Below, one piece after another: positions 53,762-56,635 of a stretch of DNA of 64,000 nucleotides. Positions within the stretch are counted from its first letter, which is position 1, and every line of letters begins with the position of its first letter. A program made the position numbers and the translations under genes. The DNA comes from Candidatus Omnitrophota bacterium. Lineage in GTDB: Bacteria; Omnitrophota; Gorgyraeia; Zapsychrales; Fredricksoniimonadaceae. The stretch is from assembly GCA_044225175.1 (NCBI GenBank), contig JBGAJA010000001.1, positions 678,711 through 742,710 of the forward strand, in the 5' to 3' direction. The notes under the pieces are model-generated. The model did no database searches and was not told the DNA's origin. It was given only the letters and a program-made list of their open reading frames with translations.

Positions 53762-56635
53762 CTATCTCATGCTAAATCTTTCAGTCGCCATATGATCGTC
53801 ATTGATACCCAAAAACATCGGCACAGTTACAGACATCCGGTGAATATTGATAATGACCGGCTTAAGACCAGAAGAATTTTGCAACTGCTGGATCATGGCC
53901 GGATCAAAATTAAAATGAACACCCTGTCCATTGCCCTTAATCTGAAGCCCCATCCTGTCACGCGTTAAATCAATACCGCCATTTTGAGCCTGAACCACAA
54001 CCTGCGCCTTATCTACTGGCAAACTAACAATAAACTTTGTCCCCTTTCCAACTTCGGATTCGACCGACACATCTCCGTGCATTAAATTAACAATCGTATT
54101 TACCGCGTCCAATCCTATGCCTGTGCCTTGAATATCTGTCGCATTGCTGGCCCGATAACCTCTAGAAAAAATCTTGCTATTCTCTTCTGCAGGGATACCT
54201 ATTCCAGTATCCTCGACCTCAAAAACAGCAGATTCTCTTTCCTTATTATCTCCGTATTTTGGTTTCATCATTTTCTTAGTAAGCCGAACAATAACCCTTC
54301 CTTCTCGAGTATATTTAATTGCGTTCTGCACCAGATTATCAACTACAACCGCCATTAAATTCAGATCACATGATCTAACAACCAAATCCTCATCAGTTAA
54401 TTCAGTAACGAAATCAAGCCCTTTTGCTTTAGCCATTTCTCTAAACAATTCAACTCGCTGATGAACAGATGGTGATATATTCCTTACCTCGAAATCCGTC
54501 CCTTGCTCCAATAACTGTAAAAATGTTTCCATTGATTCGATAACATGCGACTCTTTTGCTGAGTATTCTAAATTGCTTATAAAACTGTCGTGCCACTTCT
54601 GACTCTCTGCATCATTCGCTCTGATTTTCTTTAAATACTGAGGAATATGGCCATAAATAAACGGAAAGATGCCGACTTTAAATATATCGACCCCGCCGTT
54701 ATGTCTTAAGATCATCATAAAATCACTGAAGTCTTTATACTGACTTTGCTGTAATGAATCTCTTACCCCAAACCAAGGGGCATGGCCATCAACAATAAGA
54801 GCACCGAGCCTGTCCTCTAAAGCCCTCCGATCTTGTTCTGTAAATTCTCCCGATGATTTGACTTTTTCTTCTGATCGCCCAACCACAATTCTTATATAAG
54901 CATCCTCTGTATTACGCCATTTCTCAAAATCAGGCGACACTTCAAGCCCTGAAAACATACCAATTTTCTGCATGGCAGAAATTCCCCGTTGATTCTTGGC
55001 ATCTGCCGCAGGCTTTTTGTCGTCAGAGATTACTGAATAGATTTCTTGTCTATCAAGATTGAAATTTACTAAATCTTGTTCACTAAAACCTAAAGTGTAG
55101 GAAAAATCATACGTCCAACCCCGTCCAAACCAGATAAGAACTTTATCCGCTTTGGCTTCCTCGGCTATCTGATGTAAAAAAGTCTCCAATTTCTCTCTCA
55201 TCTCCGGCTCGGAAAAACCAAGTACTGCTGGCAACGTTCTGATGGTATCTACATGAACTTTGATATCATCAGTAGCTTTTATAATTCGCGGATACGATTT
55301 GCTTTCAAATGCGTCAATGCCCTCATTTCTAAATACCTCTAATCCGTTAGCGAATTCTTGCTGAAGAGCAGGATAAAGACTTTGTATCGCTTTCAACCCA
55401 TCCAGTAAACGTTGCCGAGTCTCCGCTATTGTCAACCGATTAGGCACCTGCCCATTTAACGCTTGAGCGTTCATCGCCATATCAGCTGGAGCAAAATTGG
55501 ATTCGACAATCATGGCACTATCTGAAACACCATCAGGCAATCTACCGCGATCGGGCGTCTTGCTATATGCTTTTCTAATCTGATCAAACCCTGCACCACC
55601 TGAATAATATTTTCGGGTCACAATCTCATCCGTGGCCGAATCATAATCCTCTTTAATGTAGTTATATGCTCCCTTCTTGAACGCTACGACGTACTGCGCC
55701 CAGATCTTGTTCTTGGCCGCTTTATCCGCGATATCAACGCCACCCGTCTTTTCTTTATCAACGTAAGCTTTTCCGAAAATGCTCTCTTTAACCTTATCCT
55801 TGAACCAGACCGCCAAAATGAGCGAATGATACACCTGCCGTAACTGTGCGAAATTTTTCCCCTCATTAACCTCTTTCTCAAGAATCGGGATCACAACCTC
55901 ACGAACGATTTCAGAACCCAACTTGTTCGTCTCCTTAGCCTTCTCGACAGCCCCTTTGCCAGCCGTGCCTTTTTCGAGAGCCAAATAATCCTCTTCCAAC
56001 AGTACCTTCAACCGACTTTCAACGACATAGACCGAGTCCTTGTTCTCATAAACAACGGCCTTCTCTGGCACGATCCAAACCTTGTTGAACGTATCAATCG
56101 GAACATCGGCTGAGCCGTACCGCTTGCGGGCTTCCGCGTACACCTTATCCCAAAACTCCTTACCTATTTTCTCCTCGGGATAAATAACGGACGCTGTGAT
56201 CTGTTTGAGAATATAGTCCTGCGCCAGAAGATCCCGGCCCATCTCCGTCACGCCAAAAGCGTTTGGAATGATACGATCCTTTTCATACGGCGATAAATTG
56301 ACCCACAGGTCTTTTTCTGGAACAGTGATCGAGGCGAGAAAATACTTGATCAAACGTGTTGATTCTGACTTCAACTGTTCGATCGAATCACTGGAATTAC
56401 CCTTGTCGAGAATAAAATCAAGCCGAAATGGATTGTCTGGGTAAACTTTGACGCCTTTAAGAAGTGGCGGCGCAAATGCAGAACTTAAATTGATCCGAGT
56501 GCCGGGTTGCGGAAGCTGAAACAGTTCCTGTGCCTGGGCATAACGAACCGGCTCAATTCCGTTGGAAATCAGGAACGTAAATAAAAGAAAGGACGCAACG
56601 ATTCTGCGCCATAGTGATTGGTGCGATCTCATCAA
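53762..56635 (-). CDS. 957-aa fusion with four parts: signal-peptide-like N-terminus, conserved about 330-aa domain of unknown function (paralog of 4060-6021), DHp-like plus HATPase_c histidine-kinase core, shared C-terminal tail; no predicted TM
   Basis: N-terminus MMRSHQSLWRRIVASFLLFTFLISNG...AQA|QE. The about 330-aa domain aligns with ORF 4060-6021. Kinase boxes are N (VVDNLVQNAIKYT), G1 (VEDTGIGIP), F (KIFSRGYRAS), G2 (GTGIGLDAVNTIV), with a putative H-box SHVIESMETF. Tail ...VHFNFDPAMIQQLQ. GC about 47% versus about 38% for its paralog. Confidence 0.8.
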   Translation of the reverse strand: MMRSHQSLWRRIVASFLLFTFLISNGIEPVRYAQAQELFQLPQPGTRINLSSAFAPPLLKGVKVYPDNPFRLDFILDKGNSSDSIEQLKSESTRLIKYFLASITVPEKDLWVNLSPYEKDRIIPNAFGVTEMGRDLLAQDYILKQITASVIYPEEKIGKEFWDKVYAEARKRYGSADVPIDTFNKVWIVPEKAVVYENKDSVYVVESRLKVLLEEDYLALEKGTAGKGAVEKAKETNKLGSEIVREVVIPILEKEVNEGKNFAQLRQVYHSLILAVWFKDKVKESIFGKAYVDKEKTGGVDIADKAAKNKIWAQYVVAFKKGAYNYIKEDYDSATDEIVTRKYYSGGAGFDQIRKAYSKTPDRGRLPDGVSDSAMIVESNFAPADMAMNAQALNGQVPNRLTIAETRQRLLDGLKAIQSLYPALQQEFANGLEVFRNEGIDAFESKSYPRIIKATDDIKVHVDTIRTLPAVLGFSEPEMREKLETFLHQIAEEAKADKVLIWFGRGWTYDFSYTLGFSEQDLVNFNLDRQEIYSVISDDKKPAADAKNQRGISAMQKIGMFSGLEVSPDFEKWRNTEDAYIRIVVGRSEEKVKSSGEFTEQDRRALEDRLGALIVDGHAPWFGVRDSLQQSQYKDFSDFMMILRHNGGVDIFKVGIFPFIYGHIPQYLKKIRANDAESQKWHDSFISNLEYSAKESHVIESMETFLQLLEQGTDFEVRNISPSVHQRVELFREMAKAKGLDFVTELTDEDLVVRSCDLNLMAVVVDNLVQNAIKYTREGRVIVRLTKKMMKPKYGDNKERESAVFEVEDTGIGIPAEENSKIFSRGYRASNATDIQGTGIGLDAVNTIVNLMHGDVSVESEVGKGTKFIVSLPVDKAQVVVQAQNGGIDLTRDRMGLQIKGNGQGVHFNFDPAMIQQLQNSSGLKPVIINIHRMSVTVPMFLGINDDHMATERFSMR

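Follow-up and report, generated by a model that had tools for sequence, protein, structure and literature searches.

A histidine-kinase-like ATPase in the cargo position of a predicted exported protein family of Omnitrophota

Introduction

Omnitrophota are abundant, uncultured, ultra-small bacteria with a presumed epibiotic or predatory lifestyle. The 64,000-nucleotide stretch of Omnitrophota DNA analysed here (the window, to which all positions refer) carries a gene, A (53762–56635, minus strand), whose product joins a histidine-kinase-like core to an N-terminus resembling an export signal. The locus raises the question of whether A is an oddly built two-component sensor or a protein of another kind, and of what a kinase-like ATPase might do behind such a signal.

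Gene A and its paralog

Gene A encodes a signal peptide, an N-domain, a linker, a kinase-like cargo and a tail, and all of these parts lie on the minus strand. The frame gives 957 residues from a TTG codon; an ATG one codon downstream, at 56632, is probably the true start, giving 956 residues. A database copy (P0001), encoded on an NCBI contig of 819,945 bp, is identical to A and has 956 residues. The Sec-type signal peptide (56531–56635, aa 1–35), assigned by sequence reading and family statistics, is followed by the N-domain or ‘leader’ domain (55595–56530, aa 36–347), which has YYSGG at its end, and by a linker (55445–55594, aa 348–397) with two DxAM motifs (DSAM at 372–375 and DMAM at 385–388). 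The cargo consists of a long helical hairpin with an alpha/beta domain (part 1; 54731–55444, aa 398–635), DHp-like helices lacking a canonical H-box (part 2; 54491–54730, aa 636–715) and an HATPase_c domain of the GHKL type with intact N, G1, F and G2 boxes (part 3; 54002–54490, aa 716–878). The conserved C-terminal tail (53765–53980, aa 886–957) begins with GGIDLTRDRMGLQIKGNGQGVHFNFDPAMIQQLQNSSGLKPVIINIHRMSVTVPMFLGI.

Paralog B (4060–6021, minus strand, 653 aa) has a signal peptide (aa 1–30, ending VHA↓Q), an N-domain (aa 31–349), a cargo (aa 350–596) made of two repeats of about 90 residues with no Pfam match, and a tail (aa 597–653). The sequence-only reading had proposed that A and B share an N-domain and a C-terminal tail, and BLASTP bears this out: the N-domains are 51% identical (aa 29–347 of A versus 26–349 of B, E 1e-115) and the tails 44% identical (aa 886–931 versus 599–644, E 7e-7). 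No further copy of either module was found in the window. Both proteins carry every element of what proved to be a family signature, namely a signal peptide, an N-domain (WVNLSPYEKDRI, NTFNKVWIV, LEKEVNEG..FA.LRQ, YFSGG) and one C-terminal GGIDL...DPAM...PVII tail.

Export signal and topology

Signal peptides were called by our own heuristics, combining sequence reading with family statistics. In A an n-region with RR is followed by the h-region IVASFLLFTFLI and by a c-region that closes with AQA↓QE. Across the 193 family members treated in this way the signal has the tripartite Sec/SPase I organization (basic n-region, h-region of 10–16 residues, small residues at −3/−1), an SPase-I-like site being present in 179 of them. 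Among members with an initial M, about 93% retain the signal. The h-region has a median length of 15 residues, position −1 is Ala in 84%, position −3 is Ala, Ser or Val in 88%, and Gln stands at +1 in 61%; the net charge of the n-region is positive in 172 of 179. Judged by these n/h/c regions and family statistics, the N-terminus noted previously as export-signal-like acts like a real export signal.

A Kyte–Doolittle scan with a 19-residue window found a single segment hydrophobic enough to span a membrane in each protein, the N-terminal one (KD19 1.69 in A and 2.31 in B); the next-best value, 1.44, lies within the ATPase fold. The same scan gave no internal transmembrane (TM) segment, including any span between the N-domain and the kinase core, in agreement with the sequence-only reading. 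The kinase-like module is therefore predicted to exit the cytoplasm along with the N-domain.

The core of the N-domain was also recovered from Streptomyces proteins (hmmsearch E 5e-45 to 2e-23), where it is preceded by an N-terminal signal peptide and followed by a C-terminal TM segment whose end is rich in Arg (RRR). This layout suggests that the N-domain superfamily is extracytoplasmic. It also disfavours, together with the presence of the signal in about 93% of M-starting members, the earlier suggestion that the signal peptide of A might be a mis-assignment on a soluble cytoplasmic kinase. Export by the Tat pathway, which would explain a folded, cofactor-loaded cargo, was considered and rejected: RR occurs in only 41 of 234 members (18%), others having KK, KR or a lone K/R in its place, and the hydrophobicity of the h-region is high (mean KD 2.38).

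The kinase-like cargo

Pfam places HATPase_c (PF02518) at aa 760–875 of A with an E value of 8e-25. The cargo alignment comprised seven sequences, of which six are full length (A and five homologs); all six of these retain the N (NAIKYT), G1 (DTGIGI), F (IFSRGYRAS) and G2 (GTGIGL) boxes. In Foldseek searches the cargo matched the DHp and CA domains of HK853, WalK and DivL, and the CA domains of HK853, WalK and CckA were matched as well; for class I kinases such as HK853 and WalK the E values were 1e-11 to 1e-13. Part 1 of the cargo is common only to A, P0002 and P0121–P0125.

No HisKA family was matched by Pfam in A or in any cargo homolog. A profile of 95 canonical kinases aligns to A only from position 39, that is, past the H-box. 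As an internal control the window provides a canonical PAS-HisKA-HATPase_c kinase with an OmpR-type regulator (37937–39897, minus strand), and this kinase (37937–39202) aligns to the profile from position 3. The previous description of a ‘bona fide’ HATPase_c domain with four boxes plus a DHp-like helix holds for the ATPase and the DHp-like hairpin (Pfam, Foldseek); a genuine DHp domain is not confirmed, as neither Pfam nor the 95-kinase profile detects a HisKA H-box.

Within part 2 the motif LRHxGG, with His645 as its histidine, is invariant and lies such that His645 precedes the Asn of the N-box by 126 residues; His663 is not conserved. His645 is a candidate non-canonical phospho-acceptor, and autophosphorylation could be possible. 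Replacement of the phospho-acceptor His by Tyr691, in the manner of DivL, was rejected because the H-box position in the profile alignment falls some 35–45 residues upstream and Tyr691 is not conserved.

In comparison with class I histidine kinases such as HK853 and WalK, A has the same DHp-like hairpin, CA fold and four boxes. The class I enzymes possess a HisKA H-box, TM segments and a cognate regulator, whereas A has no H-box, no TM segment and no adjacent regulator, and the entire protein sits behind a signal peptide. A is best read not as an odd two-component sensor but as a histidine-kinase-like ATPase in which no phospho-acceptor box can be recognised.

The carrier family

The sequence-only reading had seen a two-member paralog family with a single kinase insertion. 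The family in fact comprises 8,055 clusters at 50% identity, and the kinase is one cargo among many. Every named source of its members is an Omnitrophota metagenome-assembled genome, a few being labelled otherwise. Members range from 450 to about 3,300 residues, with one signal peptide and no TM segment, and have a common layout: a Sec-type signal peptide, the N-domain, a DxAM-rich linker, a variable cargo and a single tail at the extreme C-terminus. The start of the N-domain always falls at about residue 20–60. In 160 of 238 members a DxAM motif occurs within the 90 residues that follow the N-domain; the background frequency inside the cargo is 0.0007 per residue. The tail was at the extreme C-terminus in 105 of 120 matches, and each of the 25 members of 1,800–3,339 residues has one tail, in that position.

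The cargo ranges in length from 162 to about 2,900 residues. Those verified with Pfam include radical SAM with B12-binding domains (the CxxxCxxC motif being retained in radical-SAM cargos), transketolase with histidine phosphatase, enolase, adenylate kinase, a receiver domain, PPDK_N, UDPGP and methyltransferase; HATPase_c is also among the family cargos. Dozens of unrelated enzyme types occupy the slot between N-domain and tail, which serves as a general cargo position.

Identity to A in the N-domain correlates with identity to A in the tail (Spearman rho 0.60, p 3e-25, n = 239). The 15 N-domains closest to that of A (71–82% identity) all belong to proteins with another cargo, and the sole family member sharing the cargo of A ranks 165th of 301 by N-domain identity. 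The conserved ends co-vary with each other, whereas members of the family swap their cargo independently of them.

The N-domain, of about 310–320 residues, is mixed alpha/beta and has no detectable fold relative. It contains a cluster of invariant polar residues, E92, R95, T104, D114, K118, S123, N231 and R240 in the numbering of the domain (each 26 higher in A). In the AlphaFold model the tail has pLDDT values below 50 and makes no confident contact with the N-domain. The tail was also considered as a copy of the first beta-hairpin of the N-domain, acting by strand complementation; this was rejected on the hhalign result (E 0.16 over 12 columns). A comparison of the tail HMM with the GGIDF segment ahead of the Streptomyces domain core gave only 5.8 bits, and the resemblance between the tail and the N-domain hairpin appears to be at motif level only. 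Tail-bearing proteins without an N-domain were examined as well, and every case was a split or contig-truncated family gene. The N-domain and the tail are two unannotated domains, the core of the former being common to extracytoplasmic Streptomyces proteins.

A literature search for the N-domain/tail family found no paper describing it. As judged from its sequences, the family is very large, undescribed, specific to Omnitrophota and predicted to be Sec-exported.

Genomic neighbourhood and GC content

No secretion-system, chaperone, transporter or immunity gene is conserved beside family genes in 80 loci. The large neighbour ‘clusters’ seen at these loci are artefacts, consisting of antisense ORFs over the N-domain gene.

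The neighbours of gene A are a weak HEPN-like ORF, a small membrane ORF, TspO and a recombinase remnant. There is no response regulator among them, as had been noted earlier. The remnant is a truncated serine-recombinase ORF (57372–58477, plus strand) with Recombinase and Zn_ribbon domains and no catalytic domain; it overlaps a tRNA-Asn gene (58401–58477, minus strand). This arrangement, along with a GC-rich patch at 55.2–58.8 kb, hints at the tRNA-Asn island that had been postulated, but no att-type repeat of the tRNA delimiting such an island was found.

The GC content is 0.431 for gene A, 0.414 for gene B and 0.378 for the window, so that A is not ‘markedly higher’ than its paralog, as had been stated. 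Within gene A the kinase-coding part is at 0.398 and only the N-domain-coding part is raised, to 0.466. Horizontal acquisition of a fused variant is unsupported, because the kinase part is near background.

Discussion

On balance, A appears to be a modular exported carrier of an Omnitrophota-specific family, with a kinase-like effector or display module as its cargo. The whole polypeptide would cross the cytoplasmic membrane via Sec, with cleavage of the signal behind AQA35. Together, the N-domain and the tail may form a sorting, anchoring or assembly apparatus that would deliver the cargo to the envelope or the surface of the cell, or onward to a host or prey cell. At its destination the kinase-like cargo might act as an ATP-dependent effector or binding module rather than as a two-component transmitter.

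ATP, SAM and reducing power are not expected outside the cytoplasm, and Sec exports unfolded chains. Fe–S or B12 cargo would consequently need loading outside the cell, and an enzymatic role would require a further delivery step. The same puzzle, by what means such domains could function outside the cytoplasm, is posed by the Archaeovorin-type giant proteins of the same phylum, in which HATPase_c, radical SAM, PPDK_N, methyltransferase and GNAT domains occur with signal peptides or TM helices, and which have been interpreted as extracellular host-directed machinery (West-Roberts et al., 2023, bioRxiv 10.1101/2023.11.21.568195; bioRxiv 10.64898/2026.06.07.730766). The carrier family has the same cytoplasm-type Pfam repertoire behind signal peptides, and on this ground we read it as a small-protein counterpart of the host-interaction arsenal of the giants. 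The two are set apart by their descriptions. The giants have 10,000 to more than 100,000 residues, most with numerous TM helices, and the size range of the type begins above about 10–30 kaa with multiple TM helices; A has 957 residues and one hydrophobic segment, and the members of the carrier family are far shorter and lack TM segments. A specific N-domain and tail mark out the family, and the giant-protein papers mention neither.

In its order of parts the family also resembles the T9SS CTD proteins and cellulosomal dockerin enzymes. In these, a Sec signal leads into a catalytic part that varies, and a module of about 60–80 residues at the extreme C-terminal end is conserved. Pfam gave no CTD or dockerin match in A and, unlike these proteins, the carrier family has an obligatory N-domain of about 310 residues that co-varies with the tail.

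Among the other explanations, the one that survives best is residence in the producer's own envelope: the proteins would be exported by Sec and kept in the periplasm or at the surface with the N-domain as an envelope anchor, the cargos would work there or serve binding or structural roles, and nothing would be delivered into another cell. The membrane-anchored extracytoplasmic Streptomyces homologs and the lack of dedicated secretion genes nearby speak for it, but the retention in the cargo of ATP-, SAM-, TPP- and Fe–S-dependent catalytic motifs is hard to explain if these never meet their cofactors, and we regard this explanation as rather unlikely.

Retention of A in the cytoplasm as a membrane-tethered kinase is improbable. 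In that case the N-terminus would have to be a reverse signal-anchor (N-out, C-in) that stays uncleaved, or else the start would be mis-called; the N-domain would be a cytoplasmic sensor and the kinase an ordinary if divergent soluble one. Such a topology would remove the cofactor paradox, invariant His645 could be its phospho-acceptor, and topology predictions for the giant Omnitrophota proteins are admittedly unreliable (bioRxiv 10.1101/2023.11.21.568195). It conflicts with the positive n-region, the short h-region and the conserved AxA↓Q site described above, with the Streptomyces proteins, in which a signal peptide precedes the domain and a C-terminal anchor with RRR behind it comes after, and with the lack of both a HisKA domain and an adjacent regulator.

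A polymorphic toxin-like system for interbacterial competition, with the N-domain as trafficking domain and the variable part as a recombination-exchanged toxin, is likewise improbable: although the cargo is decoupled from the conserved ends, DxAM junction motifs flank the variable part and one member has a precomputed match to PF06414 (presumably the Zeta-toxin family; the match did not recur at E 1e-5), the variable part is central rather than C-terminal and the cargos are mostly housekeeping-type (metabolic) enzymes instead of known toxins, with no conserved downstream immunity gene in 80 loci and no known trafficking domain in Pfam. The likeness to CdiA, Rhs and LXG proteins (Zhang et al., 2012, PMC3482391) lies in a conserved trafficking part, a recombination-exchanged variable part and junction motifs; those systems combine a variable C-terminal toxin with an adjacent immunity gene, whereas the cargo of the carrier family is internal and bracketed on both sides, no neighbour gene recurs in the 80 loci, and known toxins, immunity genes and a secretion marker domain are lacking.

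The preferred reading, that of a modular exported carrier, can be extended further. Tentatively, the N-domain and tail might define an unrecognised, phylum-wide Omnitrophota system for the export and delivery (or surface assembly) of hundreds of cytoplasm-type enzyme kinds, among them kinase-like ATPases, receiver domains and radical-SAM and glycolytic enzymes, from these ultra-small cells into or onto hosts. The DxAM junctions might be processing or recombination sites, and kinase-like and receiver cargos could form signalling modules inside the host.

For annotation, HATPase_c matches in Omnitrophota genomes should not be taken as two-component sensors. The carrier family, with its more than 8,000 clusters, offers a defined and searchable handle on the exported proteome of Omnitrophota, and it makes the topology paradox of the giant proteins testable on proteins of tractable size.

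Gene and protein architecture

Protein A (53762-56635, minus strand; 957 aa counted from TTG) and its paralog B (4060-6021, minus strand; 653 aa) were both found where the sequence-only reading had placed their ORFs; that both lie on the minus strand is added here. The public copy of A, P0001, has 956 aa and begins at an ATG one codon 3' of the TTG (56632-56635), and the ATG is more likely to be the true start. The two shared modules proposed earlier were recovered by BLASTP, namely an N-terminal domain (A aa 29-347 versus B aa 26-349, 51% identity, E = 1e-115) and a C-terminal tail (A aa 886-931 versus B aa 599-644, 44% identity, E = 7e-7). 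Using the modules separately in tblastn, no third copy of either was found in the window, where the only other HATPase_c gene is a canonical kinase (37937-39202).

In a Kyte-Doolittle scan, A and B each had one membrane-grade hydrophobic stretch, at the N-terminus, which agrees with the suggested lack of a later transmembrane segment. The HATPase_c domain recognized in A was confirmed by Pfam (aa 760-875, E = 8e-25). Pfam gave no other domain in A or B; NCBIfam matched A to kinase catalytic-domain models only and B to none. The cargo of B (aa 350-596, window 4234-4974) consists of two diverged units of about 90 aa (26% identity over 78 aa, pairwise E = 4e-6), has no Pfam match and is common over its full length to one database protein only (P0356). 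B terminates 5 bp within a convergent sulfite reductase gene. The ORF directly 3' of A (53243-53668, minus strand; 141 aa) matches HEPN only weakly (E = 0.005), short of the Pfam cut-off.

Size and distribution of the family

A and B were each searched against 5.8 billion proteins, yielding 4,123 and 2,735 matches, respectively, at E ≤ 0.001 among the scored candidates; all named matches were Candidatus Omnitrophica/Omnitrophota. An exhaustive phmmer search with the N-domain, run on 1.84 billion representatives of clusters at 50% identity, gave 8,055 clusters, including 6,285 at E ≤ 1e-30. The match always started at about residue 20-60, in proteins of 450 to 3,339 aa. Taking one genome per GTDB species, at least 589 family loci were confirmed. 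The best 80 of these mostly carry Omnitrophota/Omnitrophica MAG titles, the others being 'uncultured Planctomycetales' or 'Candidatus Elulimicrobium'; a single MAG supplies up to seven of the 80. No recurrent neighbour gene was found in 80 loci. At least five paralogs (P0001, P0240, P0083, P0242 and P0266) share with the window a contig of 819,945 bp. The 'paralog pair' A and B are members of a very large family, the proteins of which are laid out as signal peptide, N-domain (ending in YFSGG or YYSGG), linker with DxAM motifs, variable cargo and tail, with no membrane span. The N-domain is novel by sequence and by fold, and Pfam, NCBIfam and the accessible Omnitrophota literature yielded no account of the N-domain/tail family.

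Export signal

The N-termini of 193 members with a Met start and the N-domain anchor motif were analysed heuristically. A basic n-region, an uncharged h-region (median 15 aa) and an SPase-I-type site were kept in 179/193, in line with the cleavable-signal-like N-terminus noted for A and B; 172 of the 179 have an n-region net charge of at least +1. The cleavage site has Ala at -1 (84%), Ala/Ser/Val at -3 (88%) and Gln at +1 (61%), followed by LPxPG. Conservation of this predicted signal extends across the family. Tat export was rejected: no more than 18% of members have twin arginines, in whose place others have KK, KR or a single K/R, so that the signal is of Sec type. A would be exported by Sec and cleaved after AQA35.

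The N-domain core was also detected by tblastn against PLSDB plasmids in six Streptomyces megaplasmids. Over profile positions 72-331, the Omnitrophota N-domain HMM matched three of the Streptomyces proteins (E = 5e-45 to 2e-23). Distant homologs of the core are present in WP_121549542.1 (L081, 6726-9047; NZ_CP023408.1, S. fungicidicus p1) and in the proteins at L082 (3696-5975) and L083 (3687-6137). These 'hypothetical proteins' of 759-816 aa have no Pfam or NCBIfam match. They begin with a signal peptide and a variable region of about 370 aa; next come GG(I/V)DF, a conserved core that closes with GGVD(L/F) and, at the C-terminus, a hydrophobic anchor with an Arg-rich end. Since the core sits between a signal peptide and a C-terminal anchor, this layout lends independent support to a role of the N-domain outside the cytoplasm. 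The GG(I/V)DF motifs on both sides of the core are reminiscent of GGIDL, with which the Omnitrophota tail starts. A pattern resembling deaminase zinc sites, HSE...(~30 aa)...CTRC, occurs in the variable region of WP_121549542, for which Pfam gave no match.

Linker, cargo and tail

A DxAM motif was present within 90 aa after YFSGG in 160/238 members, within 30 aa before the tail in 77/193 and inside the tail (as FDPAM) in 108/193, against a background of 0.0007 per residue within the cargo. The linker of A (aa 348-397, window 55445-55594) has DSAM and DMAM; in B the motifs are DPAM and DEAM. DxAM is strongly enriched family-wide at both cargo junctions and in the tail, and could mark sites of processing or recombination. 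The tail (consensus GGIDLt...m.Lq...G.gi.F..DPAmlqqLQnA.GltPVII.IqPm.....FLGl) occurs exactly once, at the extreme C-terminus, in 105/120 best matches and in 25/25 members of 1,800-3,339 aa. Tail-bearing proteins without the N-domain were rejected as a separate kind, such ORFs being split or contig-truncated family genes.

The cargo measures 162-1,240 aa (median 587) in the 192 motif-scored members of the A and B searches and reaches about 2,900 aa in the longest members. Pfam analysis of selected members identified B12-binding with radical SAM, histidine phosphatase with transketolase, enolase, adenylate kinase, receiver, PPDK_N, UDP-glucose pyrophosphorylase and methyltransferase domains, every one after residue ~400; CxxxCxxC is kept in the radical-SAM cargos. 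Precomputed annotations list further Pfam accessions as cargo, including several more HATPase_c cases. We take these accessions to be EPSP synthase, GNAT, glycosyltransferases, epimerases, HEAT/TPR, CheR, PGM, RelA/SpoT-HD, HTH_XRE, aminotransferase and HATPase_c.

Across 239 members, identity to A in the N-domain correlates with that in the tail (Spearman 0.60, p = 3e-25). The cargo does not follow: in the 15 members with the nearest N-domains (71-82% identity) it is unrelated, and P0002, the sole family member with the cargo of A, ranks 165/301 by N-domain identity. These sequence comparisons therefore indicate that the two ends travel and evolve together while the middle is exchanged.

Kinase-like cargo of A

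Residues ~398-880 of A make up a module for which the database has only six close relatives, P0002 and P0121-P0125 (34-57% identity). P0002 is cut by a contig end. P0123, which has the tail, is preceded at a distance of 217 bp by a 412-aa ORF in the same orientation; this ORF has no Pfam annotation and touches the contig end (such products are rarely scanned), and the two are probably a split family gene. In P0121 and P0125 the module follows other signal-peptide-like N-termini and the family tail is absent. In P0122 and P0124 the ATPase domain is followed by a different element, 'GGID(L/F)R.LPI..QP', so that GGID(L/F) may generally mark the junctions between modules in multidomain proteins of Omnitrophota.

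The AlphaFold model of full-length A has a mean pLDDT of 71 (ATPase domain mostly >90, N-domain 55-87, tail <50). Its cargo opens with a long helical hairpin (403-471) and an alpha/beta domain (477-615); helices at 636-711 then lead to the ATPase domain. Foldseek against the PDB matched the DHp+CA part to HK853, WalK/YycG, DivL and CckA (E = 1e-9 to 1e-13), and the N, G1, F and G2 boxes described earlier are conserved in the cargo alignment. No HisKA-type family was found in A, P0121, P0122 or P0124, and PF00512 is absent from the precomputed Pfam lists of other HATPase_c-bearing family members. A profile derived from 95 canonical kinases, starting 25 residues before their H-box, aligns A only from position 39 (A667), versus position 3 for the canonical kinase of the window. 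A is therefore not a canonical HisKA kinase: the HATPase_c domain and a DHp-like hairpin are confirmed, and no HisKA H-box was detected.

His663 has the canonical spacing, 108 residues before the N-box Asn771, and is conserved in P0002 only. His645, 126 residues before Asn771, belongs to an invariant LRHxGG motif (7/7 sequences) in a low-confidence model segment just before the DHp-like helix. The kinase module is non-canonical, and His645 is a candidate for a non-canonical phospho-acceptor. As had been noted, no response regulator is among the neighbours of A. Receiver (REC) domains are found among the cargo of other family members (P0280 and P0339), so that both halves of two-component chemistry exist as cargo.

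Genomic surroundings

The GC content is 0.431 for A, 0.414 for B and 0.378 for the window; within A it is 0.466 for the N-domain-coding part and 0.398 for the kinase-coding part. These values support neither the 'markedly higher GC' ascribed to the kinase copy nor the horizontal acquisition drawn from it. A GC-rich patch (55.2-58.8 kb; local peak 0.50 at 56.7-57.6 kb) spans the 5' half of A, small ORFs, a serine recombinase remnant and tRNA-Asn. The recombinase ORF (57372-58477) keeps the Recombinase and Zn-ribbon domains only, without the catalytic domain, and at its 3' end overlaps tRNA-Asn, which lies on the other strand; an integrated element has probably left it behind. No att-like repeat that would bound the proposed 'tRNA-Asn island' was found.

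Elsewhere in the window, a 1,547-aa ORF (17095-21738, minus strand) has TPR repeats near its N-terminus; its region is poor in GC (0.31-0.33), with an extreme AT skew that reaches -0.45, which suggests a compositionally biased or repetitive protein. Sulfate-assimilation genes (sulfite/nitrite reductase, a CysN/CysC-like GTPase-APS kinase fusion and two PAPS-reductase-family genes) flank the region at 2224-4065 (plus strand) and 23666-27767 (minus strand).

Destination of the cargo

A periplasm is an unlikely workplace for domains that depend on ATP, SAM, TPP or Fe-S. Their catalytic motifs are conserved all the same, and this argues for a destination where these cofactors are available. Giant Omnitrophota proteins of the 'Archaeovorin' type present the same topology/cofactor paradox and Pfam repertoire, and type II/IV secretion and pilus genes lie beside them (preprints 10.1101/2023.11.21.568195 and 10.64898/2026.06.07.730766); their cytoplasmic-face versus periplasmic placement is debated (10.64898/2026.06.07.730766). 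With a single signal peptide and no TM helix, members of the present family pose a cleaner topology question.

That Omnitrophota export proteins with cytoplasm-type domains is already known from the giant proteins, and secreted modular proteins whose parts can be exchanged are a known kind too. The more radical reading of the N-domain/tail family, as a new delivery system, we regard as rather unlikely. The weakest step concerns the site of action of the cargo, which would be the envelope or surface, or a host cell; the N-domain and tail would have a joint role in sorting, anchoring or assembly.
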